Assembly: GCA_947631515.1 (NCBI GenBank)
Contig: CANRLP010000001.1
Span: 223-64,222, forward strand
DNA length: 64,000 nt
From: an uncultured Bacilli bacterium
Lineage (GTDB): Bacteria > Bacillota_I > Bacilli_A > RF39 > UBA660
Reading direction: 5' to 3'
The position numbers were made by a program, and so were the translations under genes. Positions within the stretch are counted from its first letter, which is position 1. Each line of letters begins with the position of its first letter. Of the stretch, positions 9,437 to 54,627 are shown piece by piece. The notes beneath the pieces are model-generated. The model saw only the letters and a list, made by a program, of their open reading frames with translations. It was not told the DNA's origin and did no database searches.

Positions 9437-9438
9437 AA

Positions 9439-11111: not shown

Positions 11112-11151
11112 TTATATTCCCCTAGTCTATTAGAAGTATAACATGAAAATT

Positions 11152-26701: not shown

Positions 26702-26725
26702 TTATTATAACATAAAAAGTTATAA

Positions 26726-27151: not shown

Positions 27152-27159
27152 CACCATAA

Positions 27160-27250
27160 AAAAAGTGCACACGAATAGGGATTGATATGGCTGCTGTCTT
27201 CCAACTCTGACCAGATTACAATATATCCGTTGCACTTTGTAATGATAACA
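27160..27250 (-). ncRNA. ffs: signal recognition particle RNA (small 4.5S type)
   Basis: Minus-strand CUGGUCAGAGUUGGAAGACAGCAGCCA matches SRP domain IV (CAGGUCAGGUCCGGAAGGAAGCAGCC). Closing helix AAAGUGCA/UGCACUUU. Position between gyrA and tadA-dnaX, as scr is in Bacillus. Confidence 0.7.
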
Positions 27251-27315
27251 TTTTATTATATTTAATGCAACATGTTTCACGTGGAACATCAATTATAATT
27301 TAATTTATTTTTACT

Positions 27316-27344
27316 AAAAAAAATATGTTTCACGTGAAACATAT
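27316..27344 (-). terminator. gyrA intrinsic terminator (perfect palindrome ATATGTTTCACGTGAAACATAT plus U-run)
   Basis: The hairpin starts 1 nt after the gyrA stop and is followed by 8 T on the minus strand. Confidence 0.7.
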
Positions 27345-29789: not shown

Positions 29790-29798
29790 CTACACCTC

Positions 29799-32812: not shown

Positions 32813-32844
32813 TTTTGGCCTCTTTTACGCTCATATAATAAAAT

Positions 32845-32874
32845 AATAGGTATTTATGTACTCCTATACCTATT
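32845..32874 (-). terminator. hairpin after comK-like gene (AATAGGTAT...ATACCTATT, 9-bp stem)
   Basis: Inverted repeat in the 77-nt gap between the comK-like stop and recF start, followed by a T-rich tract on the minus strand. Confidence 0.35.
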
Positions 32875-32889
32875 AAAATTATAACATAT

Positions 32890-33363
32890 TTAAGCATTTT
32901 TTTGTATCTTTTTTTCAAGTTTTCGGCCATTTAAGACAGATTCTAAGCGCGTAGCCCTCATAACTTGATTATCCACAATTCCATATGTGGTATCTAATGA
33001 TAATTTATCGCCATTTTTAAATACTACTATTAAATGATTTTTTTCATAATAGTAGCGATCAATACTACTAAGTCTTAACCACGAGCATTCTGGAAGTCTA
33101 GGAGAAGTTGTGGGAAAAAATATTATACTATTGCTTTCTTCAACTATAATGGGAGCTTTGTAAGAAACTCCAATTAAATTTTCTGTTCCTTTTTTTCTTC
33201 CAGCTAAACTACTTCCAAAATATTCACAACTTTCTTCCATAATTTCATTAGCACACTTATTAACAATGAAATTAGAATCTTCTTCATATACTCGTGTTTT
33301 ATTTCCCATAGCATATAAAGCAACGGTATTATTATTAATTTCATAATTTTCCATCCATTTCAC
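32890..33363 (-). CDS. comK: ComK-family competence transcription factor homolog
   Basis: YEINNNTVAL, FGSSLAGRKKGT, KAPIIVEESNSIIFFPTTSPRLPECSW align to B. subtilis ComK (FGSSYAGRKAGT; KPPIMVDPSNQIFLFPTLSSTRPQCGW). AGGGGG RBS. Confidence 0.75.
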   Translation of the reverse strand: MKWMENYEINNNTVALYAMGNKTRVYEEDSNFIVNKCANEIMEESCEYFGSSLAGRKKGTENLIGVSYKAPIIVEESNSIIFFPTTSPRLPECSWLRLSSIDRYYYEKNHLIVVFKNGDKLSLDTTYGIVDNQVMRATRLESVLNGRKLEKKIQKNA

Positions 33364-33409
33364 CCCCTAACTTTGGAAAATTGTTTATTACCTTAACAGA
33401 TAAATATTA

Positions 33410-33445
33410 AATTTTTTGTCGAAAAAAAAGCTTACTAACAATTTA
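33410..33445 (-). terminator. intrinsic terminator after dnaN
   Basis: CTTACTA-acaatt-TAGTAAG hairpin followed by T8 on the minus strand. Confidence 0.6.
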
Positions 33446-33452
33446 GTAAGTT

Positions 33453-34571
33453 TTATTTATTAAATATTGGTAAAACTAGTTGAATTAAAGATTCATCTGT
33501 TAAAGATTTTATAATTATTGGTTTAACATCCGTATTTAGTAAAATTAATATTTCTTCCTCTTTTATAGCTTTTAATGCTTCTAACATATAGCGAGAACTA
33601 AAGTAAATTTCAATATTAGAACTAGCATCTGTATCTACAGTCAATTTTTCTTCAACTTTTCCAATTTCGCTAGCTGATGAAGAAATTTGCATCTCTTTAT
33701 TTTCAATCTTCATTTTAATTATATTTTTATCTTTTCCTTGAGTTAATAAGGCTGCTCTATCTACACTTGCCATAAATTCATCTTTATTCATTTTTATTAA
33801 AATAGCAAATTCAGTTGGAATTAAATTAGAAGTATTAGGATAAGTTCCAGAAAGAAGATTTGTTTGAAATTTTATATTTTTATATTTAAACAACACTTTA
33901 TTACTAAAAATGTGCATTTCAACATTTTCATCATCCGTAATTATTTTTTCTAATTCCATAATATTTTTACCAGGTATAACAATATTTATATCGTTTGTAA
34001 CTGGGGTTGATAACTTAATATTTTTTTTAGCTAAACGATAAGAATCAGTTGCTATAAATATTAAAATATCTCCGGTAATAGTGACATTTATACCTGTTAA
34101 TAGCGGCCGTAATTCTTGATTAGATATAGCAAAAACAGTTTGATTAATTAATGACTTTAAGACATCTCCTTTTAAAATAATTGGATCTTTATGTTCATCT
34201 ATTCTTAAATTTGGATAATCATTAGCATCTAAACAATTCAAATTATATTGGTTATTTTCTGTATAAATTCTAATTTTTAAACCATCTATAACTTCAAAGT
34301 GAATAATATCACTAGGCATTTTTCTTATTATTTCTAATATATATTTACTTTGAATAACTATTGTTCCTGTACTTTCAATACTTTTAATTTCTTTATTACT
34401 AATAAAGGCATTAATCGTAAGTTCACTATCACTAGCAGTTAAAGATAATCCTTCATTGGTTAAATCAAATTTAATTCCATTTAAGACTGGTATTACATTC
34501 TTAGTCGATACTCCTTTTATTACATGATTTAAATTTTCTAATAAAATGTTTTTATCAATTGTAAATTTCAT
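33453..34571 (-). CDS. dnaN: DNA polymerase III beta sliding clamp
   Basis: 372 aa with three-domain beta-clamp architecture, immediately after dnaA. Confidence 0.95.
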   Translation of the reverse strand: MKFTIDKNILLENLNHVIKGVSTKNVIPVLNGIKFDLTNEGLSLTASDSELTINAFISNKEIKSIESTGTIVIQSKYILEIIRKMPSDIIHFEVIDGLKIRIYTENNQYNLNCLDANDYPNLRIDEHKDPIILKGDVLKSLINQTVFAISNQELRPLLTGINVTITGDILIFIATDSYRLAKKNIKLSTPVTNDINIVIPGKNIMELEKIITDDENVEMHIFSNKVLFKYKNIKFQTNLLSGTYPNTSNLIPTEFAILIKMNKDEFMASVDRAALLTQGKDKNIIKMKIENKEMQISSSASEIGKVEEKLTVDTDASSNIEIYFSSRYMLEALKAIKEEEILILLNTDVKPIIIKSLTDESLIQLVLPIFNK

Positions 34572-34726
34572 TGTTCATTCCTTCTTTCTTTTTATTAATT
34601 TATTTTATTATGTTTATAATGCTGTTGATAAAGTGAATAACTCTATTTTTTCTTTATTTTATCGTATTTTAGCTATTTTTTTATTAGTGCATAAGCAAGT
34701 TTATTTTAAGTTAATTATCAACAATA
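34572..34726. promoter_or_regulatory. dnaA-dnaN intergenic DnaA-box cluster / AT-rich unwinding region (oriC part 2)
   Basis: TGTTGATAA (~34644) and TTATCAACA (~34706) boxes in a very AT-rich 155-bp spacer. Confidence 0.55.
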
Positions 34727-36118
34727 TTAAATTCTATTCTTAATTTCATTAATTTCAAATTCTATTTTTTTATTTTCCTTAATCTCCTTTTCAATTTTTT
34801 CATAAGCATGAATTACTGTTGAATGATCTCTTCCGCCAAATTCAAAACCTATTTTAGGAAAAGTTTCTTCGGTTAGCATTCTTGCTAAATACATGCCAAT
34901 TTGTCGTGGATAAGCAATTTTATTACTCCTTTTCTTACCTTTCAAATCTTCAACTGTTAAATTGTAATAACTTGCTACAGCTTGTTGAATATTTTGAATA
35001 CTATTTTCTGAGTAAATGTTATTACCTATATAGTCTTTAATTGCTTCATTGGCAAATTCTAAATCTATTTTATCTGGTACCATCATAGCTGTATAAGCCA
35101 TTAATCTATTTAAAGTTCCTTCTAGAAATCTTATATCATTAGGACAACAATTAGCAATAAATTCAATAACTGTTTCATCTAATTTGTCTGCTATACTGGT
35201 ATTTTTAATTTTTTGTTTTATGATTCGACAACGTAAATCTAAGTCTGGAGGATAAATATTAACAGGTAATCCCCACATAAAACGGCTTTGTAATCTTTCT
35301 TCTAATAATTTTAAATCCATAGGACTTCGATCAGAACTAATAATAATTTGTTTATTAGCTTGATGTAAAATATTAAAAGTATAAAAGAATTCTTGTTGGG
35401 TTTTTTCGGCCCCTACTAAGTATTGAATATCATCAATAATTAAGACATCAACATTTCGATATTTGTTTTTAAAATTATTGGCATAATCAATGGAATTCGG
35501 CCCTTTTTCAACATAAGCAATTCCCGTAAAATCATTCATAAACATATCACTTGTTGTGTATAAAACTTTTTTATTGGTCGTTTGAGTTATAAAGTTTCCA
35601 ATGGCATGCATTAAATGAGTTTTACCTAATCCACTTTTTCCATATATAAATAAAGGATTATGTAATTTTCCAGGTTGTTCAGCTACTGCCATCGCCGCAA
35701 TTTTAGCCAAACGATTTGTATCACCTACTACAAAGTTATCAAAATTAAGATTTGGCTTTAAATTACTTTCCCAAACTTCATTCTGCTCTTCTTTTTCTTT
35801 GGTTTGTGGATAAGTATCTATAGGAGTATTTTTATTTTCGATTTCATCTTCTAAAACAAATTTAATATCATAATTTATATTGGTTATTTTTAATAAAATA
35901 TCTTCAATTAATGAATAATAATTGTCACTTAAAATATTTCGGTGAATATCCATAGGGACTTGAATAGTTATTAAATTATTTTCAATGCTAATTAATTTTA
36001 AGTCATTAAACCAAGCATAATAAGATGCTGAATTTATCTCATTTTTAATATTTTCTAAAAATTTATTCCATATTTCTTCAACTAACAAATCCATCACCCC
36101 GCTTGTTATTATTACCAA
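34727..36118 (-). CDS. dnaA: chromosomal replication initiator DnaA
   Basis: AAA+ GKSGLGKTHL, box VII, C-terminal DNA-binding signature. Confidence 0.97.
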   Translation of the reverse strand: MVIITSGVMDLLVEEIWNKFLENIKNEINSASYYAWFNDLKLISIENNLITIQVPMDIHRNILSDNYYSLIEDILLKITNINYDIKFVLEDEIENKNTPIDTYPQTKEKEEQNEVWESNLKPNLNFDNFVVGDTNRLAKIAAMAVAEQPGKLHNPLFIYGKSGLGKTHLMHAIGNFITQTTNKKVLYTTSDMFMNDFTGIAYVEKGPNSIDYANNFKNKYRNVDVLIIDDIQYLVGAEKTQQEFFYTFNILHQANKQIIISSDRSPMDLKLLEERLQSRFMWGLPVNIYPPDLDLRCRIIKQKIKNTSIADKLDETVIEFIANCCPNDIRFLEGTLNRLMAYTAMMVPDKIDLEFANEAIKDYIGNNIYSENSIQNIQQAVASYYNLTVEDLKGKKRSNKIAYPRQIGMYLARMLTEETFPKIGFEFGGRDHSTVIHAYEKIEKEIKENKKIEFEINEIKNRI

Positions 36119-36449
36119 TTTAATTGTAGCTCAAACCACTTAAATTGAAAAGTCTAAAATAATTATTCACTCTAATTCACATGTTATCAACAGCAAATTT
36201 TTCCTTATTCTATCTGATTTTAGAATATTTATCAACATTATCCACAAATTTTCAAATAATTTTTATGCACATTGTTTATATAATTTATCAACAATAATGT
36301 TAATATGTTGATAAAGACTAAATTTCCTTTAATTTAATGATTAGATATAAACATTTTTATAAACTAGTGTATTTTTCAAACATCTTCTTGACTTTTTTTA
36401 TGCACTAATATTATAATAAGGAAGCTTAGATTTAAAGGAGGAAGAAAAA
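36119..36449. promoter_or_regulatory. oriC DnaA-box cluster between dnaA and rpmH
   Basis: Perfect TTATCCACA at 36238-36246. TTATCAACA at 36184-36192, 36229-36237 and 36285-36293, and TGTTGATAA at 36306-36314. The coding strand switches here. Confidence 0.75.
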
Positions 36450-36575
36450 ATGTTTAGTACTTATCACCCAAATAAAAGAAAAAAAGCTAAAAAACATGGA
36501 TTTTTTGCACGTAAAGAAACTAAAATTTTAAAAAATAGAAGAAAAAAAGGTCGTAAAAATTTAATAACTAAATAA
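36450..36575 (+). CDS. rpmH: 50S ribosomal protein L34 (41 aa; below ORF-track size cut-off)
   Basis: MFSTYHPNKRKKAKKHGFFARKETKILKNRRKKGRKNLITK. GGAGG RBS at 36436-36440. Confidence 0.9.
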   Translation: MFSTYHPNKRKKAKKHGFFARKETKILKNRRKKGRKNLITK

Positions 36576-36598
36576 CCACTAATTATGTGGTTTTTTTA
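36575..36598 (+). terminator. hairpin plus T-run between rpmH and rnpA (terminator/attenuator)
   Basis: ACCAC-TAATTAT-GTGGT followed by T8. The ORF-track GTG start for rnpA (36587) lies inside this hairpin. Confidence 0.45.
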
Positions 36599-36616
36599 TT
36601 AAAAAGGATGATTTTA

Positions 36617-36943
36617 ATGAAAAAAAAAGAAGTTGTTAAAAAAAAGGAAGAATTTAATAATATAATTAAAACTTGTCCTTATAAAAAAAATAAATATTTT
36701 ACTATATATATAAGGAAAAGAGAAAATGCAATTGCTCGTTTTGGTCTAGCAATAAGTAAAAAAGTTGGAATTGCTGTTGTTCGTAATCGTTTAAAAAGAC
36801 AATTACGAGCTATAATTGATAAAAATAAAGGTATCTTTTCAAATAGTTGTGATTATATTATAATGATTAAGAAAGATTGTGTTAATTCATCTTTCCAAAT
36901 TTTAGAAAAAAATTTAATTAATTTATTAAAGGAGACAAAATGA
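36617..36943 (+). CDS. rnpA: ribonuclease P protein component
   Basis: MKKKEVVKKKEEFNNIIK... matches the RnpA N-terminus (MKK.NRLKKNEDFQKVF). Start chosen at ATG 36617 with AAGGA RBS. Confidence 0.85.
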   Translation: MKKKEVVKKKEEFNNIIKTCPYKKNKYFTIYIRKRENAIARFGLAISKKVGIAVVRNRLKRQLRAIIDKNKGIFSNSCDYIIMIKKDCVNSSFQILEKNLINLLKETK

Positions 36944-37896
36944 AATATAAAAAAATTACCGTGTTAATAGCATTAATTTTATTATTTACGACAGGGTGTG
37001 GAAATTCTAACTATATTCAAGATAATAAAAAGATTGTTACTAATGAAGAAACAGGTCAAAGTTTACAAAATAATATTTTATGTAAACCGACAGAAAAAGA
37101 ATTATATGAGATTTATGAAAAATATAATGATCAATTAAAGACAAAATTGGAAGATTTACCAACATGTCAAGAATTTACTCCTAACAAAATAGCTTATCAT
37201 GGCTTATGGGAATCTTTATTTGTTAAACCATTAGCTTATATAATTTTAAAATTAGGAATGTTAGTAAAAAATTACGGTATATCAGTTATGTTAGTAGGTT
37301 TAGGTATTAGATTGATATTAATGCCATTTTCTAAAAAGAGTATGGATCAATCTGAAAATATGAAAAAAGCTACTCCAGAAATTCAAAAAATTGAAAAAAA
37401 ATATGCAAACAAAACTGATACTGATTCAATGATGATGAAAAGTCAAGAAACAATGTTAGTTTATAAAAAATATAATATAAATCCAGTATCGGGTTGTTTA
37501 ATTGCTTTTATCCAACTTCCTTTATTTTTTGCTTTCCTCCAAGCTATTAATAGAGTACCTGCTATATTTGAAGATAGTTTGTTAGGCATGAAATTAGGAA
37601 TGACTCCATGGATAGGTATTAGCAAAGGAAATTATATTTATATAATTTTAATTATCTTAATAATTTTAACTACGTATTTATCATTTAAGAATTCTATGAA
37701 ACAAACAGGAACAAATAGTGAAATGGAACGTCAAATGCAATTTTCTTTGAAATTTATGATTATTATGATATCAATTGCATCATTTAGTTTACCAACAGCT
37801 ATAGCTTTATACTGGGTGGTTACTAATGGCTTTATTGTAATTCAAAATTACATATTTAAAAAAATGAATGAAAAAAGTTCCAAAAAGAGAGGTTAA
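36940..37896 (+). CDS. yidC: membrane protein insertase YidC/SpoIIIJ (lipoprotein)
   Basis: Lipobox LLFTTGCGNS, multi-TM 60-kDa-IMP domain. Confidence 0.9.
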   Translation: MKYKKITVLIALILLFTTGCGNSNYIQDNKKIVTNEETGQSLQNNILCKPTEKELYEIYEKYNDQLKTKLEDLPTCQEFTPNKIAYHGLWESLFVKPLAYIILKLGMLVKNYGISVMLVGLGIRLILMPFSKKSMDQSENMKKATPEIQKIEKKYANKTDTDSMMMKSQETMLVYKKYNINPVSGCLIAFIQLPLFFAFLQAINRVPAIFEDSLLGMKLGMTPWIGISKGNYIYIILIILIILTTYLSFKNSMKQTGTNSEMERQMQFSLKFMIIMISIASFSLPTAIALYWVVTNGFIVIQNYIFKKMNEKSSKKRG

Positions 37897-37898
37897 TT

Positions 37899-38510
37899 AT
37901 GAAAGAAGTAGAATTAAGTGCTAAATCAAAAGAAGAGGCTTTAAAAAAAGTAGAAGAAGCTTTAAATGCTAGTGTAGATGAAATTATTTATCATATAACT
38001 GAAGAAAAAGGTAAGTTATTTAAGAGTCCAACTTACACTATTAAAGCTATTACATATGATGAAGTAAATAAAATAATTTTGGCATATTTAGAAGAAGTAA
38101 TTAAAAATTTAGGATTACATCCTACTATTGAATCTAAGATAGTTGAAAAAAAATTTGAGATACAAATGACTTCTGATAATAATCCTCTTTTAATTGGTAA
38201 GAATGGTCAAACTTTAAAAGCTTTAGAAGTATTAGCTAGACAATACATATTTAATAAATATAAATATTATATAAACATTAATATAGATATTGAAAATTAT
38301 AAAGAAAAACGTATTAAAAATTTAGAATATTTAGCTAAAAAAACTGCTAAAGAAGTTGTTATTACTCAAATAGAAGTAAAATTAGAAAACATGAATTCTT
38401 TTGAAAGAAGAATTGTTCATAATTCATTAACTGATTTTAAAGGTGTTACAACATTAAGTGAAGGAGAAGAACCTAATCGCCATGTTATAATCAAACCTGT
38501 TGCTAAATAA
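37899..38510 (+). CDS. jag: Jag/KhpB (KH + R3H RNA-binding protein)
   Basis: Jag-N, KH and R3H (NSFERRIVHN) motifs. Synteny. Confidence 0.85.
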   Translation: MKEVELSAKSKEEALKKVEEALNASVDEIIYHITEEKGKLFKSPTYTIKAITYDEVNKIILAYLEEVIKNLGLHPTIESKIVEKKFEIQMTSDNNPLLIGKNGQTLKALEVLARQYIFNKYKYYININIDIENYKEKRIKNLEYLAKKTAKEVVITQIEVKLENMNSFERRIVHNSLTDFKGVTTLSEGEEPNRHVIIKPVAK

Positions 38511-38597
38511 GCAATGGGTTTTTATATTAGTTATCAACAAATTATTTCCCGGGAAATATTTTTGTGTTATAATACCCACGAAAAAGGAAGTGCTAAC

Positions 38598-39953
38598 ATG
38601 AACGATAATGATACTATTGTTGCTATTTCTTCAGCTATGGGAAAAGGAGCAATTTCTATTATTCGATTAAGTGGAGAAAATTCAATTTCTATAGTTAATA
38701 AAATATTTAAAGGCAAAGATTTAAGTAAAGTACAATCTCATACTATTCATTATGGTTTTATAGTTGATGAAGAAAAAGAAATAGATGAAGTTCTTGTATC
38801 TGTAATGCTAGCTCCCAAAACTTATACTACAGAAGATATTGTGGAAATTAATTGTCATGGTGGTATATCTACAACTAATAAAGTTTTAGAATTAGTTATT
38901 AAAAATGGTGCACGTCTGGCTGAACCAGGGGAATTTACTAAAAGGGCATTTTTAAATGGGCGAATTAATTTAGTAGAGGCTGAAGCGGTTGGTGATTTAA
39001 TTGCTGCCAAAAGTGAAAAACAAAGAGCTGTAGCAATTAATGGGGTAAATGGTCGTTTAACTAAATTAATATCCAAGCAAAGAACAATTTTATTAGATTT
39101 ATTAGCTAATATTGCTGTTAATATTGATTATCCTGAATATGATGATGCTCTTGTTGTAACTGAAGAATATTTAAAAGAAAAATTGACAAATATTAAATTA
39201 GATTTAGAAATTTTATTAGAAAATGCGAAAATTGGTAAAATTATTAAATCAGGTATAGATATAGCTATAGTAGGAAGACCAAATGTTGGTAAAAGTAGTT
39301 TATTAAATGCTTTTTTAAATGAAGATAAAGCAATAGTTACCGATATATCAGGTACAACAAGAGATATAATAGAAGCAACAACTAACTTAAACGGAATTGA
39401 AATTAACTTAATAGATACCGCGGGAATAAGAAAAACAGATGATTTAGTAGAAAAAATAGGTGTTGATAAAAGTAAAAAAATAATAGATACTGCTGATTTA
39501 ATTATTTTAGTATTAAATAATAATGAGTTATTAACTAAAGAAGATGAAGAATTATTACAAAAAGTTTCCAAAAAACCTCATATTATTTTTGTTAATAAAA
39601 ATGATTTAGCAAAAAAATTAGAATTACCAAAAAATATAAAAAGTATCATGGGAAATACTCAAGAGTTAAATGGTTTAGAAGCTTTAAAAAAAGAAATTAT
39701 TACTATGTATAATTTAGATAAAATAGATGAAAAAGATAGTACTTACTTATCTAATATTCGTCAAATAAATTTAGTAAAAGAAGCTCTAGAAGAAATAAAT
39801 ATTGCTTTAACTGATCTTTCAAACCATATTCCTATTGATATGTTAGAAATTCATATTCGTTCTTCTTGGGAAAAATTAGGTATTTTAATTGGAGAAAATT
39901 ATGAAGATGAATTAATAGATAAATTATTTAAAAATTTTTGTTTAGGAAAGTAG
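38598..39953 (+). CDS. mnmE: tRNA modification GTPase MnmE
   Basis: GRPNVGKSSLLN, DTAG, C-terminal CLGK. Start at ATG 38598 after AAAGGAAG RBS. The ORF-track start at 38514 runs through the promoter. Confidence 0.93.
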   Translation: MNDNDTIVAISSAMGKGAISIIRLSGENSISIVNKIFKGKDLSKVQSHTIHYGFIVDEEKEIDEVLVSVMLAPKTYTTEDIVEINCHGGISTTNKVLELVIKNGARLAEPGEFTKRAFLNGRINLVEAEAVGDLIAAKSEKQRAVAINGVNGRLTKLISKQRTILLDLLANIAVNIDYPEYDDALVVTEEYLKEKLTNIKLDLEILLENAKIGKIIKSGIDIAIVGRPNVGKSSLLNAFLNEDKAIVTDISGTTRDIIEATTNLNGIEINLIDTAGIRKTDDLVEKIGVDKSKKIIDTADLIILVLNNNELLTKEDEELLQKVSKKPHIIFVNKNDLAKKLELPKNIKSIMGNTQELNGLEALKKEIITMYNLDKIDEKDSTYLSNIRQINLVKEALEEINIALTDLSNHIPIDMLEIHIRSSWEKLGILIGENYEDELIDKLFKNFCLGK

Positions 39954-39961
39954 ATGAAAAT

Positions 39962-41827
39962 ATGAAATATGACATTATAGTTGTTGGTGGTGGCCATGCT
40001 GGTTGTGAAGCTTCTCACATCGCCGGATTTATGGGTAAAAAAACTTTACTTATTACCATGAATAAACAAAATATCGCTGATATGCCTTGTAATCCTTCAA
40101 TTGGAGGAACAGCCAAAGGAATTATAGTTCGAGATATTGATGCCTTAGGGGGATTAATGGGTAAAATAGCTGATAAGTCTCACTTTCAAATGAAAATGTT
40201 AAATAGTAAAAAAGGTCCAGCAGTTCAATCTCTTCGTTGTCAAGCTGATAAAAAATTATATCCTCGCAATATGTTAGCAGCTTTAGAAGAAACATCTAAT
40301 TTAGAAATTATGGAAGGTCTTGTAGAAGATATAATTGTCAAAAATAATAAAATAGAAGGAATAATTTTAAATAATAAAGAAAAAATCTTTTGTGATGCCT
40401 TAATTTTAACCACAGGAACTTATTTAAAAAGTAATATTTTAAGGGGTGCTAAAAACACCAAAGGAGGACCTCATGGTGAGGGAAGAAGTAATTTTTTAAG
40501 TGATAATTTAAGAAAGTTAGGATTTACAATTCAAAGATTAAAAACTGGTACTCCTCCTCGAATAAAAAAAGATTCAATAGATTTTTCAAAATGTCAAGAA
40601 GAGTTAGGTGACCATAAATATTATACATTTTCTCATGATGATGAACCATTTTACGATATTGATAAACAAGAAAAATGTTATTTGGTTTATACTAATGCTA
40701 AAACTCATGAAATCATTTTAAATAATTTAGATAAATCTAGTATGTATGGTGGATATGTAACAGGTATAGGACCTAGATATTGTCCTTCTATCGAAGATAA
40801 AATTGTTCGTTTTAAAGATAAGGAAAGACATCAACTATTTTTAGAGCCGGAAAGTAAAGAGTATGATGAATGGTATTTACAAGGTTTTTCGACTAGTATG
40901 CCTGAAGATATTCAAGAACAAATGGTTCATAGTTTAAGTGGCTTAGAAAATGCAGTAATAACTAAATATGCTTATGCTATTGAATATGACGCTATTGATC
41001 CTTTACAAATGAAACCTTCTTTGGAATCGAAAGTTGTGGAAAATATTTTTACGGCTGGTCAAATTAATGGAACAAGTGGTTATGAAGAAGCTGCCGGACA
41101 AGGTTTAATAGCTGGTATAAATGCAGTTTGTAAATTAAATCAAACTCAACCTCTAATTTTAAAAAGAAATGAATCTTATATAGGAGTTTTAATTGATGAT
41201 TTAGTAACAAAAGGTACAAAAGAACCATATCGCATGTTAACATCAAGAGCGGAATATCGTTTATTACTTCGCCATGACAATGCCATTCTACGTTTGCGGC
41301 CCATTGCCCATAAATATCAAACAATAACTGATAAAATGTATCAAAATTATTTAAATTTGGTAACAGATATTGAAAAGTTAAAAAAATTCTTAACTAATAC
41401 CAAATTAGAATTGACTAATGAAAATAAAAAACTATTTATTCAAAATAATTATCAATTACCTCCTAATAAAATAAGTTTTTTAGATTTATTAAAAAGACCT
41501 GAAATTACAATGGAATTTTTAAATCAGTTTACCAATATAGATTTTCCTATAAATGTAAAAGAAGAAGTAGAAATTGAAATTAAATATGAAGGGTATATAA
41601 AAAAGACGGAAAAAGAAATAAGTAAAATGTTAAAATTAGAAGAAAAACAAATTCCTTCTGATATTGATTATCAAAAAGTTAAAAATTTAGCAAGTGAAGC
41701 TCGTCAAAAACTAGAGCAAATTAGACCTTTATCAATTGGCCAAGCAGCTCGAATTAGTGGTGTTAATCCGGCAGATATCTCTATTTTAGCTGTCTATTTA
41801 AAAAGGGAATATAGTAAAGATGAATAA
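39962..41827 (+). CDS. mnmG: tRNA uridine 5-carboxymethylaminomethyl modification enzyme MnmG
   Basis: MKYDIIVVGGGHAGCEA FAD motif. The ORF-track TTG start at 39938 overlaps mnmE. Confidence 0.95.
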   Translation: MKYDIIVVGGGHAGCEASHIAGFMGKKTLLITMNKQNIADMPCNPSIGGTAKGIIVRDIDALGGLMGKIADKSHFQMKMLNSKKGPAVQSLRCQADKKLYPRNMLAALEETSNLEIMEGLVEDIIVKNNKIEGIILNNKEKIFCDALILTTGTYLKSNILRGAKNTKGGPHGEGRSNFLSDNLRKLGFTIQRLKTGTPPRIKKDSIDFSKCQEELGDHKYYTFSHDDEPFYDIDKQEKCYLVYTNAKTHEIILNNLDKSSMYGGYVTGIGPRYCPSIEDKIVRFKDKERHQLFLEPESKEYDEWYLQGFSTSMPEDIQEQMVHSLSGLENAVITKYAYAIEYDAIDPLQMKPSLESKVVENIFTAGQINGTSGYEEAAGQGLIAGINAVCKLNQTQPLILKRNESYIGVLIDDLVTKGTKEPYRMLTSRAEYRLLLRHDNAILRLRPIAHKYQTITDKMYQNYLNLVTDIEKLKKFLTNTKLELTNENKKLFIQNNYQLPPNKISFLDLLKRPEITMEFLNQFTNIDFPINVKEEVEIEIKYEGYIKKTEKEISKMLKLEEKQIPSDIDYQKVKNLASEARQKLEQIRPLSIGQAARISGVNPADISILAVYLKREYSKDE

Positions 41828-42524
41828 ACAAGAATTTCTTAATGCTTTGAAAAAAATGGCAATAAATATCACAGAAGAACAATTAAATAGTTTAGAAACT
41901 TATAAAAATCTTCTTATTGAATATAATAAACATACTAATTTAACAGCTATTAAAGATGAAGAAAGTATATTTTTAAAACATTTTTATGATTCACTTACTA
42001 TTAATAAATATTTAAAAAATAACGAATTAGTTTTAGATATTGGAACAGGTGCTGGATTTCCTGGCATGGTCTTAGCTATTATAAATCCAAATATCAATTT
42101 TGTATTACTTGATTCTAACAATAAAAAGATTAAATTTTTGGAATATTTAAATAATAATTTAAATTTAAAAAATGTAACTTTTGTTAATCAAAGAGCAGAA
42201 GATTATGTGCATGGAAATCGGGAAAAATTTGATATTGTAACTTCTCGAGCAGTAGCTGATTTGCGCATATTATCAGAATTATCACTTCCTGCTTTAAAAA
42301 TAGGAGGTCTTTTTGTAGCGATGAAAGGCGATATTTCTGAGGAATTAAATAATTCTCGGGAGACTATTAATATTTTAGGAGGAAGCATTCAAAAAATTGA
42401 AAAAATCCTATTACCTTTCGAGAATAGTAATAGAACAATAATAACTATCTCACATAATTTCAAAACAAATGAACTTTATCCAAGAAGCTACGACAAAATT
42501 CTTAAAAAGCCATTGAAAAAATAA
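41820..42524 (+). CDS. rsmG: 16S rRNA (guanine527-N7)-methyltransferase
   Basis: DIGTGAGFPG SAM motif. Overlaps mnmG by 8 nt. Confidence 0.93.
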   Translation: MNKQEFLNALKKMAINITEEQLNSLETYKNLLIEYNKHTNLTAIKDEESIFLKHFYDSLTINKYLKNNELVLDIGTGAGFPGMVLAIINPNINFVLLDSNNKKIKFLEYLNNNLNLKNVTFVNQRAEDYVHGNREKFDIVTSRAVADLRILSELSLPALKIGGLFVAMKGDISEELNNSRETINILGGSIQKIEKILLPFENSNRTIITISHNFKTNELYPRSYDKILKKPLKK

Positions 42525-42568: not shown

Positions 42569-43924
42569 ATGAATATGGATAAAAATATTCAAGAAATCCC
42601 AATTGAGGATATAATTCCTAATAGATTTCAACCAAGACTTGCATTCAATGAAGAAGGATTGAATGAACTTTCTGATTCCATAAAACAACATGGAATAATT
42701 CAACCCCTTGTTGTACGTAAACTTGGCGATAAATATGAAATAATTGCTGGAGAAAGAAGATATAAAGCTGCTACTCAAGCCGGATTAACTAAAGTGCCTG
42801 CTATAATTTCTGATATAGATGATAATAAAAGCGCCGAGGTAGCTTTAGTAGAAAATATTCAAAGAAGAAATTTAACAGCTATTGAAGAAGCTAAATCATA
42901 TAAAAATTTATTAGACAGAGGTTATTTAACTCAAGAACAATTAGCAGCAAAGATGGGAGTATCTCAATCTTCAATTGCAAATAAATTAAGACTATTAAAC
43001 TTAGCTCCAGAAGTTCAAGATGCCTTATTAAATGAAAAAATATCAGAACGTCATGCTCGAGCATTGTTAAGTTTAGATGATATGGAAGAGCAAAAAAAAT
43101 GGTTACAAAAAATAATTGATGAACGTATGACTGTTCGGCAATTAGATATGGAATTAAAAAAATATAAAGAAGATCCTGATGACGAAGGAAATGATATACC
43201 TTTAGTTAATATAAATCCCGATATAGATAGCATTTTAAATAGTGCAGAAGATATTAATGTTACTAGAGAAGCACACGATGTAGCTAGTATGTTAATGCCG
43301 GACCAAGCCATGAATCAAAATGAAGTTACTGACCAAAATTTGCCACCAGAATCACCTTCAAAAATGCCTAATAAATTCTTTAATTTTTTAGAAGATGAAC
43401 AAGCAAATATGGATATTGGTGAACCTGATGAGATATTTACGAATTTTACTCCAACTTCTTTAGAAGAATCAGAACCAAAAATTCCAGAAAATACTATGCA
43501 ATCTGTAGAAGTATTAGATGATTTAGATAATATCGATACTGATGATAAGCCTGAAGATACGACACCATCAACACCTCAAGAATTACCGGAAGAACCACAA
43601 AATGTTGAGTCTTTTGAAAATATATTTGAATCGACACCAAACTTAGAAAATAATTCTACGGAAATTGTAAACGAACCAATAAGTCAACCAGTAGTAAAAG
43701 AAAATACTTTTGTAGATCCTATGGATAGTGTTGTAAAATTAGAACCAGATTATGAAGAAAAACAAGAAGAATTAGCTGGCACGGATTTAAAAAGTGCAAT
43801 AAATACTATTAGAGAAACAATTGATGCGCTAAATAAAAAAGGATTTACAATAGAAATGGAAGAAGCCGATTTAGAAGATTTGTATCATATAACAATTAAA
43901 ATCGATAAAAACCAAGAAGAGTAA
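42569..43924 (+). CDS. ParB/Noc-like nucleoid partition/occlusion protein with long acidic disordered insert
   Basis: ParB N-terminal box IAGERRYKAA, HTH (QEQLAAKMGVSQSSIANKLRLL). A ~180-aa D/E/P-rich low-complexity region follows, then a short C-terminal domain. No parA downstream. Confidence 0.8.
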   Translation: MNMDKNIQEIPIEDIIPNRFQPRLAFNEEGLNELSDSIKQHGIIQPLVVRKLGDKYEIIAGERRYKAATQAGLTKVPAIISDIDDNKSAEVALVENIQRRNLTAIEEAKSYKNLLDRGYLTQEQLAAKMGVSQSSIANKLRLLNLAPEVQDALLNEKISERHARALLSLDDMEEQKKWLQKIIDERMTVRQLDMELKKYKEDPDDEGNDIPLVNINPDIDSILNSAEDINVTREAHDVASMLMPDQAMNQNEVTDQNLPPESPSKMPNKFFNFLEDEQANMDIGEPDEIFTNFTPTSLEESEPKIPENTMQSVEVLDDLDNIDTDDKPEDTTPSTPQELPEEPQNVESFENIFESTPNLENNSTEIVNEPISQPVVKENTFVDPMDSVVKLEPDYEEKQEELAGTDLKSAINTIRETIDALNKKGFTIEMEEADLEDLYHITIKIDKNQEE

Positions 43925-43996: not shown

Positions 43997-45311
43997 ATGA
44001 AGAAAGCAAAAAATAACCTCCCAACCAGACTAACTCTGGGGGGGTATATCAAATAAGAAAGAAGACCTAGAGTTAGAAAAGTTTACTAAGAACAAAAAAA
44101 GAAAATTTATTTTAATAGGATTAATATTAGGAATAAGCGTAACTATTGGTGGAATATTCTTATATAAAAGTTATGCCTATTATGAAAATGAAAAAGAGTA
44201 TAACGTAATAAAAGGAATAATACCCGATTTTTCGTATGATGTGAAGTTTGCCATAACCGTGGATGATGAAACAAAAGAATCAATCCCAACAGAGCCAAAA
44301 GATGCTAACAAATCAAATTATTATAAAGTAACGGCTACTTGTGATAATGGTATAAAAGCAGAATGGGATTATAATGCCTGGAACTTAAAAGTAGAAGATA
44401 TTCAAAAAGGAACAAAATGTAAATTAGCATTTAATAGTACCTTAACCGAAGCAGATTACAAAAATTACATTGACGCAGGAGTTGCATATAGAAGAAATAC
44501 ATATAGAGGCAAAGATATTACCAGTAAATTAAAAGATGGTAGTTTATTCACAGAAATAGAGAGTGGTCATTTCGACGATATATTTGTTGGAGATTACATA
44601 ACAAGTTCAAGTGGCCAAAAAGATTTAAGTAACAAAACAGTAGTATGGTTAATAGCTGATCTAGATAATTATTTATATACTGGAGACGGAGGTATTGTGT
44701 TAAATAAGCATCATGCGACAATAATACCAGCAATTCCTTTAATGAAAGCTTCAATGAATTCCACGAATACAACTGTAGGAGGATATGCCGGAAGTGAAAT
44801 GGTAGGGTATGAAGTAGACGAAAATGGAAAAGCTACCCAAGAGAAAAAAGAAGAAGGAGGAACATTAGATACAGTATTAAGTAAATATATAGAGCCTGAT
44901 TTTGGAGCTAGTAATCCTAGTGGTGATAAACAAAATCATATAATAGAATATCGAAATATAATAACTGTTCAAGTGGATAAAACAAGAACAAATCGATTTG
45001 GACTTACCGATGGTACAAGCTCTAATTTTGAATGGTATAATAGAAAATTAGATTTCATGAGTGAAATGAATGTGTATGGAGGAATCATTTGGTCATCATC
45101 AGGCAGAGATATCGGCATAGACAATATGCAATATGCCATATTTCAACTAAAGCCAGGTTTTAGAGATTCTTACGGAACTTATAGATTTCATTACTGGTTA
45201 AAAGATGTAGCCAAAATGAATAATTTTGCGTATTCCGACGCCTATGGTGTGTCGGGCGTCTACGGTGCGAATGGCCTTATTGGAGTCCGCCCCAGATTCT
45301 TAATCGGTTAA
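43997..45311 (+). CDS. hypothetical membrane-anchored (type II) secreted protein; reading frame interrupted at an A7 homopolymer (44093-44099)
   Basis: ATG 43997 with GAGGAGG RBS encodes MKKAKNNLPTRLTLGGISNKKEDLELEKFTKNKK in frame 2. The frame-0 ORF opens at 44076, encodes TM helix FILIGLILGISVTIGGIFLY, and continues 44241-45311. Deleting one A in the A7 tract fuses the two. No in-frame ATG exists for the downstream part. Confidence 0.55.
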
Positions 45312-45427
45312 CATTTTCTTTTTGAGCAAATGTTTTTTTTAGTTGTTAAACATTGCTATTTTAATAAAAATAACTTTTTTATAAAACTTAAGCGTGTTAT
45401 AATTAGAATAATGGAAGAGGGTTAAAC

Positions 45428-46963
45428 ATGACTAAGTATGATGCTATATTTATTGGGGCCAATAATAGTAATTTAATAGCGGCATTAAGACTAGCTAAAA
45501 ATGGCTATAAAGTATTAATGTTAGAAAAGAATCATATTCCTGGTGGATGTTCTACTAGTTTTATTAGAGGACGTTTTGAATTTGATGCTTCTTTACAAGA
45601 ATTATATGAATATGGATCAACAGAGGAACCAGGTTTATTATATAAATTATTTCAAAGTTTGGATTTAAATGATCAGATACGTTTTGCAGATATCCCTAAT
45701 GCTTTTCATGTTTATGTTAGTTCTAATCATGAAAATTATAAATTGCCTTTTGGGCTACGTAATTTTATTGATAAGATGGAAGAATATGTAAGTGATAGTA
45801 GAGAGTCTTTAGAAAAGTTCTTTCAATTAGGTTTAGAGTGCCGAAATGCTTTAAAATATATTGGTAAACATAAAGCAAATACTCGTTACGAAGTTTTATT
45901 GAGTGATTATCCACATTTTATGAAAATAGCAAATTTATCAGTTAGTACAGTTTTGAATGCTATAAATATGCCTCGTAAAGCTCAAGAAATATTAGCTGCC
46001 AATTGGAGTTATTTTGGCAGTCCGATTGATACTTTATCTTTTGTCCAATTTTCTTCCACTTTTTATTCATACATTGCTAGGGGAACGAAGATACCTCGTA
46101 AAACTAGTTTTGAGATTAGTTTAGTTTTAGCTGAAAATATAGTTGATAATGGTGGATATATTAAGTACTTATCAACAGTTGAAGAAATTTTATTTGAAAA
46201 TGACAAAGTAAGTGGAGTTAAGCTTAGTAATGGGGATATTTATGAAGCACCATATATTATTTGTGGCGTATCTCCTAATGAAGTTTATGGCAAAATGATA
46301 CCATCTAAATATATTCCTAAAAATGCTCTTAAACTTACTAATTCACGGGTTTTAGGAGGTAGAGGTTTTGCTATTTATTTAGGTTTAAATCAAAGTGCTA
46401 AAGAAATAGGATTGAATGATTATTCTTATATAATTACTAATACTTTGGATAGTCGTAAAGAATATGAAAAAATGGGAACAACGAATGTAGAACATTTTAG
46501 AGTATCAGTTATCAACAATGCAAATATTGCAGCATCTCCTAAAAATACATGTATTATGCAATTTTCTACTTTTTTTACTAATGATTGTTTTATGAAACTA
46601 GCTAATCCAAGTAATTATTATGAATTAAAAGAACAAATTGCCAATCGTTTAATTACTCTTTTTGAAGATATGACAGGAATTATTATTAAACCTTTTATTG
46701 AAGAAATTGAGATTTCTTCTCCAGAGACTTTTGCCAGGTATACTAATCAACCTGAAGGGACAATTTATGGCTTTAAAGCAACAGGTTTAGATAATCTTTT
46801 ACCACGAATGATTAATGAAGAAAATGAACAATTTATTGATAATTTGAAATTTAATAGTGGTTTTGGCACTTATTTAAGTAGTTATGCAACGACATATTTG
46901 ACGGGAAATGAATTAGCCATGAATATCCTAGCTAGTAGAGAAGGGGTGGATGCAAATGAATAA
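45428..46963 (+). CDS. FAD-dependent oxidoreductase, phytoene-desaturase (CrtI)/amine-oxidase family
   Basis: N-terminal dinucleotide-binding DAIFIGANNSNLIAALRLAKNGYKVLMLEKNHIPGG. ~510 aa, typical for the CrtI family. Confidence 0.65.
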   Translation: MTKYDAIFIGANNSNLIAALRLAKNGYKVLMLEKNHIPGGCSTSFIRGRFEFDASLQELYEYGSTEEPGLLYKLFQSLDLNDQIRFADIPNAFHVYVSSNHENYKLPFGLRNFIDKMEEYVSDSRESLEKFFQLGLECRNALKYIGKHKANTRYEVLLSDYPHFMKIANLSVSTVLNAINMPRKAQEILAANWSYFGSPIDTLSFVQFSSTFYSYIARGTKIPRKTSFEISLVLAENIVDNGGYIKYLSTVEEILFENDKVSGVKLSNGDIYEAPYIICGVSPNEVYGKMIPSKYIPKNALKLTNSRVLGGRGFAIYLGLNQSAKEIGLNDYSYIITNTLDSRKEYEKMGTTNVEHFRVSVINNANIAASPKNTCIMQFSTFFTNDCFMKLANPSNYYELKEQIANRLITLFEDMTGIIIKPFIEEIEISSPETFARYTNQPEGTIYGFKATGLDNLLPRMINEENEQFIDNLKFNSGFGTYLSSYATTYLTGNELAMNILASREGVDANE

Positions 46964-48116
46964 AATTGAATTAAAAGGTTTAAATAATGATAAAAATTTT
47001 CAAAATATGGGCAAAGAAAGAGAAAAAATTATTCATAAGTCTTCTTCTAAACCAATTGTAACAGAATATAAAGCTAATGCTTTAGCTAAGAAATTACATC
47101 CAGAAGAGCAATATGTTAAAGTAGAAAAAATTATTAAAGAGAATGATGATGTTAAAACGTTTGTTTTAGTACCAGATAAAAGTGAAAATACTAATTCCTT
47201 AGCTTATTTTCAAGCTGGACAATACATAACTATTATCGTTGAAATTGATGGAGGAATTTATAGAAGACCTTATACTTTAAGTTGTAGTCCTAAACATGCC
47301 TTAAATCACGAATATATGATTACAATTAAACGGGTTAGAGGGGGAATAATTTCTAATTATTTTTTAGACGAAGTGCAAGAAGGTTTTTCTTTTAAAATTT
47401 CTGCTCCTTTAGGAAATTTTTGCTATTCAACAATTAGAGATTGTAAACATGTATTAGCACTAGCTAGTGGAAGAGGAATTATCCCTTTTTTATCTATGGC
47501 TGAAGCTATCTATGATGGTAATTTAAAATGTAATTTAACAATTCTTTATAAAGCTAAGACTAAAGATGATTTGTTATTTCGTGAAAAATTAGATGATATT
47601 ATTTGTAAAATGGAAAATGTAAATGTAGTGTATGTTTTGAGTGAAGAAGATGACAATGAATTTTTGAGTGGCGACATTGATGAAGATTTAATAAGACAAT
47701 ATTCTACGGAAGAAACATCATATTTTGTTAGTGGTTCTCCAGATTTTTATTCTCATATTAATGAAGTTTTAAAAAATTTGGATATTCCGAAAAAGTTTGT
47801 TCGACATGATTTATTTAAGGGAGAAATTGAGTTAAAGAGTAATGAAGAGTATTTACTTACAGTTATAAGTGATGAAAGAGAATATTCTCTTAAATGTCAT
47901 GGTAAAGAAACATTATTACAAGCCATTGAAAAAAGTGGTATTGATATAAAAAGTGGTTGTCATGTTGGAGTTTGTGGTTTATGTCGCAGTAAGTTAATTA
48001 GTGGGAAAGTAAAAACTATTGACGAAAATTTGAGAGCTATTGATAAATCATATAATTATATTCATCCATGTATAACTTATCCGGAAAGTGATGTAATATT
48101 AAAATTACCTAATTAA
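46950..48116 (+). CDS. FNR-type FAD/NAD(P)-binding reductase with C-terminal plant-type 2Fe-2S ferredoxin domain
   Basis: RPYTLS FAD-binding motif, GIIPFLSM NAD motif, C-terminal CHVGVCGLC...C cluster. Overlaps the upstream gene by 14 nt. Confidence 0.65.
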   Translation: MQMNKIELKGLNNDKNFQNMGKEREKIIHKSSSKPIVTEYKANALAKKLHPEEQYVKVEKIIKENDDVKTFVLVPDKSENTNSLAYFQAGQYITIIVEIDGGIYRRPYTLSCSPKHALNHEYMITIKRVRGGIISNYFLDEVQEGFSFKISAPLGNFCYSTIRDCKHVLALASGRGIIPFLSMAEAIYDGNLKCNLTILYKAKTKDDLLFREKLDDIICKMENVNVVYVLSEEDDNEFLSGDIDEDLIRQYSTEETSYFVSGSPDFYSHINEVLKNLDIPKKFVRHDLFKGEIELKSNEEYLLTVISDEREYSLKCHGKETLLQAIEKSGIDIKSGCHVGVCGLCRSKLISGKVKTIDENLRAIDKSYNYIHPCITYPESDVILKLPN

Positions 48117-48130
48117 TTTTTGGCAAATAA

Positions 48131-48162
48131 AAAAAATCGTTTATTAGAAAAACGATTTTTTT
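48131..48162. terminator. bidirectional intrinsic terminator between the reductase gene and rpsD
   Basis: ATCGTTT-attagaa-AAACGAT hairpin flanked by A8 and T7. Confidence 0.6.
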
Positions 48163-48763
48163 ATCTGTTGTAGAATTCAACAATAAGACTTTCATCAATT
48201 TCTTGATTTAATTCACTACGATCAGGAAGTCTAACGTATGAACCAGACATCTTTTTAGCATCAAAGTCAACATAAGCCGGACGACTTAATGTAGCTTCTA
48301 AAGCTTCTTTTATTGCTTTATGATCAAGTGAATTTTCTTTTACACTGATAGTATCTCCTGGTTTAACAGTATATGATGGAATATTTACTTTTTTACCATT
48401 TACTAAAATATGACCATGGTTAACTACTTGTCTAGCTCCCCGTCTAGTTTTAGCAAGTCCCATCCGATAAACTAAATTATCTAAACGACTTTCTAATAAC
48501 TTAAGTAAATTTTCTCCAGCTACACCTTTCATTTTAGAAGCACGATCAAAAACTCTTCTAAATTGTTTTTCGGTTAAACCATACATTAAACGTACTTTTT
48601 GTTTTTCTTGTAATTGGACACCATATTCACTAAGTTTCTTACGACGATCTGCTCCATGAACACCAGGGGCATAAGGACGACGTGCAAGTTCACGACCATT
48701 TTCTAAAAGAGAAAAATTTAATCTTCTTGCTTTTTTATAAGCAGGTCCAGTATATCTTGCCAT
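48161..48763 (-). CDS. rpsD: 30S ribosomal protein S4
   Basis: MARYTGP..K..RR, S4 domain. A 250-nt leader upstream fits S4 autoregulation. Confidence 0.95.
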
Positions 48764-49025
48764 AAAATTACTCCTTTCTAATTTTGCTATAAGTTAAGAT
48801 AAAAATTAATTTAATAGGGAGTTTATACGAATCATTTCCTAAAAGGCAGTTTAGTACTTTGAATTGAATTATAAACACGTTACTAAATATAATTTTCGCT
48901 GCCAACTCATGCACTAATAATTTATCACTATATTCTTATTATGTCAAATATAATTTTATGATATGATAGCTGGATTTTCTTTTATTTTTAAATAAAAAAA
49001 TGATATACTATCTTTGGGTGTCATT

Positions 49026-51377: not shown

Positions 51378-54062
<2,685 letters not shown>

Positions 54063-54063
54063 A

Positions 54064-54627
54064 TTATTCCTCCTTAAAGTATATTTCATCCACAACTTTT
54101 AAATAATCGAGAGGTGGACGATAACCATATTTAATCAAATATCCCGTATTTTGAATAAATGAATAAGGGATGCTTTTACGATTGTTATTATCTATAAATT
54201 CAATAAAATCAAAACCTTTTAATAAATATACTAAATCATTAATTTTTATAATTAAAAATACAATTCCTTGATGTCTTAATATATTTCTAATATGATTTAT
54301 TTGATGATGATGGATATTGGCTAGAGGAAAAGATGTTTTATTTTGGGTAACTTTAGCTTCAAATTCAATATATTTGCCCCGATAAAGGCCATTATAGTCG
54401 AGGGTTGATTGTTCTTTAAAGTAACCTTTTTCAATTACTTTTCCGTGTAAATTATATGAAACATTAGCAACTCCGATGGGAGTAGGTTTTTTATAAATAT
54501 AAGCTTTATCAATTTCAATATAGTATTCGTTACTTAAATTTAACTCTTCTTCTAAATCCATTCCACGGTTTTTATAGGAAATAGGGGTTTGGTGCACGTC
54601 TTTTTTTATGTTATTTGGATAATTCAT
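54064..54627 (-). CDS. recU: Holliday junction resolvase RecU
   Basis: RecU family length and motifs. recU-ponA operon as in Bacillus. Confidence 0.85.
   Translation of the reverse strand: MNYPNNIKKDVHQTPISYKNRGMDLEEELNLSNEYYIEIDKAYIYKKPTPIGVANVSYNLHGKVIEKGYFKEQSTLDYNGLYRGKYIEFEAKVTQNKTSFPLANIHHHQINHIRNILRHQGIVFLIIKINDLVYLLKGFDFIEFIDNNNRKSIPYSFIQNTGYLIKYGYRPPLDYLKVVDEIYFKEE

Follow-up and report, generated by a model that had tools for sequence, protein, structure and literature searches.

We analyzed a stretch of 64,000 nucleotides from an uncultured Bacilli bacterium (GenBank assembly GCA_947631515.1, contig CANRLP010000001.1, positions 223 to 64,222 of the forward strand; hereafter, the window). 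In this window, a gene for a CrtI-superfamily flavoenzyme (45428-46963, + strand, 511 aa) runs into a gene for an FNR-type NAD(P)H oxidoreductase with a C-terminal plant-type [2Fe-2S] domain (46950-48116, + strand, 388 aa). As judged by comparison of genomes, the two genes form an obligate, co-inherited and translationally coupled unit. We propose that their products constitute one two-component flavoenzyme, in which the CrtI-like protein would be the substrate-transforming component and the FNR-type protein the electron-donor subunit, and that this enzyme probably transforms a lipid C=C bond, most likely by reduction. We put the probability of this overall reading at about 0.5.

Pairing of the two proteins

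The pairing was analyzed at loci from other genomes. One genome per species was scanned, and of the 257 relatives that were confirmed, the 80 best were retained. At 78 of the 80 loci, a reductase homologue is encoded directly downstream of the flavoenzyme gene on the same strand. The two exceptions are locus L028, which ends 74 nt past the gene, and locus L081, a 4.2-kb contig with a truncated match. The reductase gene is also directly downstream in every relative that was fetched by exact look-up. The junctions between the two genes mostly lie between -4 and +4 nt. In the window itself, the 14-nt overlap that was described in an earlier note on this DNA was verified on the sequence. An alternative in-frame ATG at 46956 would shorten the overlap to 8 nt, and this start has a better spacing from the GAAGGGG Shine-Dalgarno sequence. 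Furthermore, the two proteins occur as single-polypeptide fusions in both domain orders (P0350, P0372 and P0383, and also P0270; assigned by Pfam and inspection of the linker). The reductases that we aligned share an N-terminal extension with a conserved LHP motif, and this motif is kept in the linker region of the fusions. Finally, when pairwise identity matrices of the two proteins from 63 loci were compared, the Pearson correlation was r = 0.78, and 0 of 999 Mantel permutations reached this value. The earlier note had suggested a dedicated two-component redox system. Adjacency, translational coupling, natural fusions and correlated divergence back this idea, and we regard it as highly probable.

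The module is widespread, with conservation throughout the anaerobic Firmicutes. A profile search of 1.84 billion representatives gave at least 1,473 clusters (50% identity) at E ≤ 1e-30, and the module comprises more than 2,000 clusters at 90% identity. The Clostridia, Bacilli and Treponema that carry it come from gut, rumen and digester settings. The hosts include Clostridia (Oscillospiraceae, Acutalibacteraceae, Christensenellaceae and Lachnospiraceae), Bacilli (Erysipelotrichaceae, Anaeroplasmataceae-like metagenome-assembled genomes (MAGs) and Limosilactobacillus avium), one Thermodesulfobacteriota MAG and six Promethearchaeota MAGs; Treponema was found in the protein search. Two pairs per locus are present in L033, L060 and L074. 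The pairs from Promethearchaeota MAGs (L031, L033, L039, L048 and L050) are 37-40% identical to the Bacilli protein, with tandem copies at positions 1359-7089 of L033. The presence of the pair in these Asgard archaeal MAGs may point to inter-domain transfer. A link to Roseburia hominis, a vaccenate former, was dropped: the locus belongs to a MAG bin, and the protein cluster has 7 members, each of which is on 1-2 contigs.

The FNR-type reductase

The domains that the earlier note assigned to the 388-aa protein were correct. FAD_binding_6 (PF00970, residues 57-159), NAD_binding_1 (PF00175, residues 171-270) and C-terminal Fer2 (PF00111, residues 308-378) follow one another in this order, all above cut-off. 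In an alignment with 59 partner sequences, the cofactor motifs of the window protein are intact: RRPYTLS represents the RxYT motif, GxGxxP is present as G174-x-G176-x-x-P179, and the four cluster cysteines (C337, C342, C345 and C374) are kept. The departures from the family sequence GGSGI are G173S and S175R.

The best NCBIfam matches are PaaE (147 bits), GbcB (144 bits) and Hcr (131 bits), whose domain order and cofactor motifs are identical to those of the reductase. All of these scores are below half of the respective cut-offs. The protein falls outside PaaE (TIGR02160, 146.6 bits against 420.8) and outside Hcr (PRK10684, 131 bits against 383). No paa genes were found in the window or among the recurrent neighbors, and hcp is not adjacent to the reductase gene in either set. 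The usual acceptors of PaaE, GbcB and Hcr (the di-iron PaaAC, the Rieske protein GbcA and the hybrid-cluster protein, respectively) are absent; the proposed acceptor in the pair would be a flavoprotein. PyrK and AsrB, which the earlier note had raised as other identities of the reductase, gave negative results. With the PyrK models, the reductase reaches 45 and 23 bits, where 224 and 270 bits would be required, and no pyrD is adjacent. AsrB does not appear in the list of NCBIfam families with E ≤ 0.01, and no asrAC is adjacent. No known pathway is encoded nearby; the neighbors of the reductase gene are the CrtI-like gene and rpsD.

The CrtI-like flavoenzyme

The 511-aa protein possesses the Pfam domains Amino_oxidase and NAD_binding_8, and its earlier domain assignment was also correct. 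Its best NCBIfam match is carotenoid isomerase (CRTISO, TIGR02730), which covers residues 4-464 with 96.1 bits against a cut-off of 586.9. Several CrtD models match as well. For TIGR02734 (crtI_fam), the score of 31.9 bits does not reach the cut-off of 238.1. The AlphaFold2 (AF2) model is confident (pLDDT 90.7) and predicts the FAD-binding, substrate-binding and helical parts of a CrtI-type fold. The closest solved fold is 4REP, a gamma-carotenoid desaturase. The flavoenzyme is just 18-19% identical to 4REP and to CrtI itself (4DGK), and no close solved structure was found for it. Propionibacterium acnes linoleate isomerase (PAI; 2B9W), which has no reductase partner, is clearly more distant from the flavoenzyme than 4REP.

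Could the flavoenzyme be an enzyme of C30 or C40 carotenoid biosynthesis or isomerization? It has the CrtI/CrtD fold, and the database names of homologues, which are mostly generic such as "NAD(P)/FAD-dependent oxidoreductase", also include "phytoene desaturase family protein" and "prolycopene isomerase". However, the scores are far under every carotenoid equivalog cut-off, and no phytoene synthase, dehydrosqualene synthase or other carotenoid family was found in the window or among the recurrent neighbors at 60 loci. A role in carotenoid metabolism is hardly credible to us. In comparison with the CrtI/CrtD desaturases, the pair is without carotenoid gene context, has an FNR-[2Fe-2S] partner and resides in anaerobic hosts. 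To our knowledge, no CrtI-family enzyme has a dedicated FNR-[2Fe-2S] partner.

Genes beside the pair in other genomes

The 116 immediate neighbors of the pair in the 60 loci were classified by clustering and Pfam. In this flank survey, no universal third gene was found beside the pair. The recurrent neighbors include GntR-FCD regulators (7 neighbors, 2 of which match FadR_C), YegS/DAG-kinase-like lipid kinases (6), YhhN of the lysoplasmalogenase family (4), TetR regulators (4 by Pfam, 10 by clustering) and GDSL lipases (2). One locus is particularly dense. In L070, from a Faecalimonas MAG (5061-11441), the genes for PPDK, DegV/FakB, the pair, FakA and a short-chain dehydrogenase/enoyl-reductase-family protein follow one another on a single strand, and gaps of 14 and 44 nt separate the pair from DegV/FakB and FakA. 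In L035, DegV is two genes from the pair. A FadH-like reductase of the old yellow enzyme (OYE) type is encoded directly downstream of the pair in L015 and nearby in L084. The earlier note had stated that there is no substrate clue near the pair. This is correct for the window itself but not for the related loci, where lipid-related neighbors recur. As a separate observation, a heliorhodopsin gene (L035, 8748-9428) lies directly downstream of and convergent with the pair in an uncultured gut bacterium.

Some neighbors point away from lipids. If the pair were an ene-reductase for a diet-derived non-lipid compound, for example a plant aglycone freed by glycosidases, it would be inducible by its substrate via an adjacent TetR, GntR, LysR or MarR regulator. 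Rhamnosidase (2-3 loci), fucosidase, alpha-amylase and GFO/IDH/MocA genes stand beside the pair in some Clostridia, regulators are frequent among the neighbors, and the double pairs in L033, L060 and L074 suggest diversification of the substrate. However, the glycosidase-type neighbors are sporadic, and in the reduced-genome Bacilli the pair has housekeeping genes around it and neither a regulator nor a glycosidase. Moreover, all characterized members of the CrtI-fold clade act on long hydrophobic chains. We consider a non-lipid dietary substrate of this kind distinctly unlikely.

In several divergent Bacilli, a gene for a 165-aa rubrerythrin/ferritin/COQ7-like di-iron protein precedes the pair at a distance of 44-258 nt (in L006, L007 and L009, about 75 nt). 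This gene is directly upstream in L005 (7186-7743), L006 (5403-5894), L007 (3259-3747), L009 (3885-4385) and L086 (1122-1637), and close by in L001 and L029; in the flank survey, 4 neighbors were rubrerythrin/ferritin-like, all of them in Bacilli. The di-iron protein may be a lineage-specific third component. The same arrangement could also mean an oxidative-stress module, in which the reductase would feed the di-iron protein and the flavoenzyme would be an O2- or peroxide-consuming oxidase. However, the rubrerythrin-like gene was looked for in the window and is absent, it is also absent from most Clostridia and archaeal loci although the pair is near-universal, and its adjacency may reflect shared ancestry of gene order alone. 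Such a stress function is very improbable in our view.

Proposed function

The domain families suggest that NAD(P)H reduces the FAD of the FNR module and that the electrons proceed via the [2Fe-2S] cluster to the FAD of the CrtI-fold subunit. With its reduced flavin, this subunit would transform a hydrophobic substrate at a C=C bond. We rate it as an even chance that the pair targets a C=C bond in a hydrophobic or lipid substrate. The pair would most likely saturate a lipid double bond, in an unsaturated fatty acyl or an isoprenoid chain, with a net transfer of two electrons, and the neighbors in other genomes point to exogenous or membrane fatty acids or lipids as the most likely substrate class. 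That the pair is a net reductase of fatty-acid double bonds specifically is possible, and we hold this narrower assignment with considerable doubt. Net saturation is favored for three reasons. First, the reductase is stoichiometric, coupled and sometimes fused. Second, the hosts are anaerobic and lack the O2 or quinone acceptors of CrtI-type desaturases. Third, reductases with the FNR-Fer2 architecture are electron donors.

Two known systems resemble this proposal. CRTISO and its sister retinol saturase employ reduced FAD to isomerize or to saturate a C=C bond that is already present. By analogy, this is the chemistry that we propose for the pair; unlike the pair, the eukaryotic and cyanobacterial CRTISO and retinol saturase are without a fused or adjacent reductase. 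The 2,4-dienoyl-CoA reductase FadH is an ene-reductase in which NADPH, FAD, an Fe-S cluster and a second flavin are combined in one polypeptide with an OYE TIM barrel and a 4Fe-4S cluster. Its electron logic (pyridine nucleotide, flavin, Fe-S, second flavin, C=C bond) may be the same as that of the pair. However, the folds are unrelated: in the pair, the chain is split over two proteins, the cluster is 2Fe-2S and the catalytic subunit has the CrtI fold. Two further candidates were set aside. The isoprene reductase of Acetobacterium is a different protein (glutamate-synthase-like, 901 aa), and the SpiR cholesterol enzyme is irrelevant to the pair.

Isomerization or hydration by the reduced flavin is the main rival to net saturation. 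In this case, the CrtI-like subunit would isomerize or hydrate a lipid double bond in a redox-neutral reaction, in the manner of CRTISO, PAI or hydroxyarchaeol synthase (Has). It would need FAD in the reduced state, and the FNR-[2Fe-2S] partner would merely prime or re-reduce the flavin. The top curated match is indeed CRTISO over the full length (96 bits, against 587 for the cut-off), and CRTISO needs reduced FAD without a net redox change. PAI has the same fold and provides a superfamily precedent on acyl double bonds (PMC2885616). Has is a CrtI-family hydratase and provides the precedent on isoprenoid double bonds (bioRxiv 10.1101/2025.10.20.683597). Nevertheless, a reductase that is coupled 1:1 and sometimes fused suggests stoichiometric electron flow, and the known isomerases and hydratases of the CrtI fold are without a dedicated partner. 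We consider redox-neutral catalysis unlikely, but it deserves more weight than the other alternatives.

Electron flow in the opposite direction was also considered. As a desaturase, the CrtI-like subunit would oxidize a C-C bond, and its partner would take the electrons to NAD(P)+ or another acceptor. The closest solved fold, 4REP, belongs to a carotenoid desaturase. UfaD of Rhodobacter, a phytoene-desaturase-like member of the same superfamily, desaturates fatty acyl chains and is a precedent for action on acyl double bonds (PMC7380195). However, UfaD has no reductase partner and needs O2, and known CrtI and UfaD use O2 or quinones, whereas the hosts of the pair are anaerobic. The transfer of electrons uphill via the [2Fe-2S] cluster to NAD(P)+ would be thermodynamically unfavorable, and the FNR-Fer2 proteins PaaE, Hcr and GbcB are all donors. 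A desaturase is improbable.

Several points weigh against assignment of the pair as a lipid C=C reductase. The substrate is assigned from gene neighbors alone, and sequence cannot tell the direction of electron flow, nor net reduction from redox-neutral catalysis. The loci in which YegS, the pair and YhhN stand together form one subclade, with 56-88% identity to each other; therefore, the lipid signal comes from about 3-4 independent lineages. The neighbors are heterogeneous and include the carbohydrate-related genes described above (rhamnosidase, fucosidase, amylase and GFO/IDH/MocA), and none of the lipid-type genes adjoins the pair in the window. As for the pairing itself, the Spearman correlation for the same identity matrices is just 0.22, and the fusions from metagenomes could in principle be frameshift artefacts. 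Furthermore, the window flavoenzyme lacks 2 of the 3 glycines of the FAD fingerprint: residues 10-15 (45455-45472) are GANNSN in place of GAGNGG, a sequence that does not fit GxGxxG. Among 34 other aligned family members, GAG is present in 33 and the third glycine in 31. Two conserved C-terminal glycines are also replaced (G477S and G485S). Because of these lost glycines, FAD binding by the window orthologue is putative.

These replacements, together with the frameshift in the adjacent gene ORF1 (see below), raise the question of whether the window flavoenzyme is decaying or has ceased to bind flavin, so that the pair would be a relic in this genome. However, its open reading frame (ORF) is intact and of full length, and it is off-consensus at 9 of 119 conserved columns, which is no more than in other members. 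The motifs of the partner reductase are intact. GANNSN is kept in P0002, which is 63% identical, GAGNSN is present in P0004 and P0009, and GGNNSN is the form in P0001, a strain variant with 99% identity. The change is therefore not an error, and its retention in P0002 and its variation in P0001 indicate a maintained feature of the lineage. These sequences indicate a stepwise loss of the canonical fingerprint glycines in one Bacilli sub-lineage. We think it quite unlikely that the pair is a relic.

Synteny and transcription of the pair

The earlier note had interpreted the region as an accessory insertion with three non-core genes. The three ORFs are present, all on the + strand (44241-45311, 45428-46963 and 46950-48116). 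However, an insertion is refuted for the redox pair, which stands beside rpsD in all close relatives examined; at most, the first gene (ORF1) is non-core. In L001, L005, L086, L088 and L090, orthologues with 50-63% identity occur in the same order: the pair, convergent rpsD, cca, dnaD and nth, often with PBP1A and recU next after nth. The upstream flank is variable and contains RluA plus the rubrerythrin-like gene, another unrelated gene or, in the window, noc plus ORF1. A mobile or accessory island was also considered for the pair and rejected, given the flat GC content, the conserved rpsD synteny and no noteworthy direct or inverted repeats at the flanks. The window is otherwise of housekeeping character, with yidC, dnaX, mfd, metG, pgsA, recA, rny, rnj and ftsY. 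The pair is vertically inherited with the rpsD block near the probable replication origin and is not an inserted island.

The position of the origin was estimated from the gene order at about 25000-42500. There, dnaX and ORFs of the sizes of gyrA, gyrB, recF, dnaN and dnaA are on the - strand and are followed on the + strand by yidC and the putative mnmE, mnmG, rsmG and noc genes; Pfam was used to check dnaX and yidC. This order and the strand switch suggest that the origin is at around 36.1-36.9 kb, some 9 kb away from the pair. Two other proteins of the window have unusual low-complexity regions. The Noc/ParB-like protein (42569-43924, 451 aa; 306 bits against the Noc cut-off of 315) contains a long acidic insert of low complexity between the ParB helix-turn-helix domain, which ends at about residue 200, and the C-terminus. 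The PBP1A homologue (51378-54095, - strand, 905 aa) has a long C-terminal low-complexity tail that is rich in Asn, Ser and Thr and includes a poly-Asn run.

Ahead of the flavoenzyme gene, an extended -10 promoter-like element, TGTTATAAT, can be read at 45395-45403 (+ strand) as a consensus match, and a putative ribosome-binding site (RBS), GGAAGAGGG, at about 45413-45421 (+ strand). With these elements, the pair looks like a separate transcription unit with a candidate extended -10 and a shared hairpin terminator. The layout from TATAAT to the RBS recurs upstream of ORF1 (direct repeat D2). The terminator that had been noted between the pair and rpsD was confirmed by folding against shuffled sequences: the hairpin (48122-48169) has -11.9 kcal/mol and z = -3.58, and an equally stable fold was reached by 0 of 200 shuffles. 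It is preceded by a run of A and followed by a run of T, which fits a terminator that serves both the pair and the convergent rpsD (48161-48763, - strand), the anchor of the synteny block. Upstream of the pair, the intergenic fold is no better than that of shuffled sequences. An Rfam scan around the pair gave no family at threshold, and thus no riboswitch or other RNA clue upstream of it. A sub-threshold match to rli22 (27 bits, E = 0.28) is located in the rpsD leader (48829-48916, - strand). This leader may be an S4-binding autoregulatory leader for which there is no curated model.

The upstream gene ORF1

ORF1 was first delimited as a gene of 356 aa (44241-45311, + strand). This call was truncated: upstream, the frame stays open as far as about 44035 but contains no start codon. 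At 43997, an ATG that follows a GAGGAGG RBS opens MKKAKNNLPTRLTLGG in another frame, which stops at 44054, and the two frames join at a run of seven G residues (G7; 44038-44044, + strand). When they are conceptually joined, the N-terminus (MKKAKNNLPTRLTLGG/ISNKK...) aligns with the full-length homologues P0130, P0142 and P0162 and is followed by a hydrophobic membrane anchor, as read from the sequence. From the RBS, the ATG and the homologue alignment, we delimit ORF1 at 43997-45311 (+ strand), as a frameshifted, variable upstream gene for a membrane-anchored protein of a DUF6273-related family. That its product is a surface protein, as the earlier note had it, is plausible. The G7 run is the sole G or C run of at least 7 bases in the 64-kb window (27% GC). 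The frameshift could result from an assembly error, mark a pseudogene or serve as a slipped-strand phase-variation switch of a surface protein.

For the ORF1 family, 386 homologues with a length of about 380 aa were found. Many contigs encode more than one of them, and a few carry PF19789 (DUF6273). WDYNAWN and GVRPRFLIG are its invariant motifs. Pfam and NCBIfam scans of the window ORF1 gave no match, and no paralogue was found within the window. The AF2 model (pLDDT 79) has no fold match in the PDB; therefore, the fold of the family may be undescribed. In the relatives examined, ORF1 is not upstream of the pair, and its relative in L001 is located elsewhere. ORF1 is not part of the redox pair.

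Significance

Both superfamilies are well known. However, a CrtI-fold enzyme with a firmly linked NAD(P)H/[2Fe-2S] reductase of its own has apparently not been reported before, and our literature search found no description of a CrtI-like/FNR-[2Fe-2S] pair. With scores under every curated family cut-off and no close solved structure, the pair is uncharacterized, as the earlier note had assumed.

Biohydrogenation of fatty acids has long been known from rumen and gut anaerobes. According to the reviews that we consulted (PMC4478896, PMC13365329), the genes of the reductases in this process have been assigned only in part. It is conceivable, although we think it rather unlikely, that the family is the missing lipid double-bond reductase of anaerobes, a soluble NAD(P)H-dependent "saturase", which would hydrogenate unsaturated fatty acids (biohydrogenation of linoleate, conjugated linoleic acid, vaccenate and oleate) before or during their FakA/FakB-dependent incorporation into membrane lipids. 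If this is true, the pair would be a housekeeping membrane-tuning enzyme in fatty-acid-scavenging, small-genome Bacilli such as the host of the window. Anaerobic saturation or isomerization of lipid double bonds shapes the composition of dietary fat and milk fat and bacterial membrane homeostasis. For these processes, the pair is a concrete two-gene candidate that is directly expressible and represents a large family in gut anaerobes. Even if the substrate turns out not to be a lipid, the pair would represent a new class of microbiome flavoenzymes that transform ene groups.

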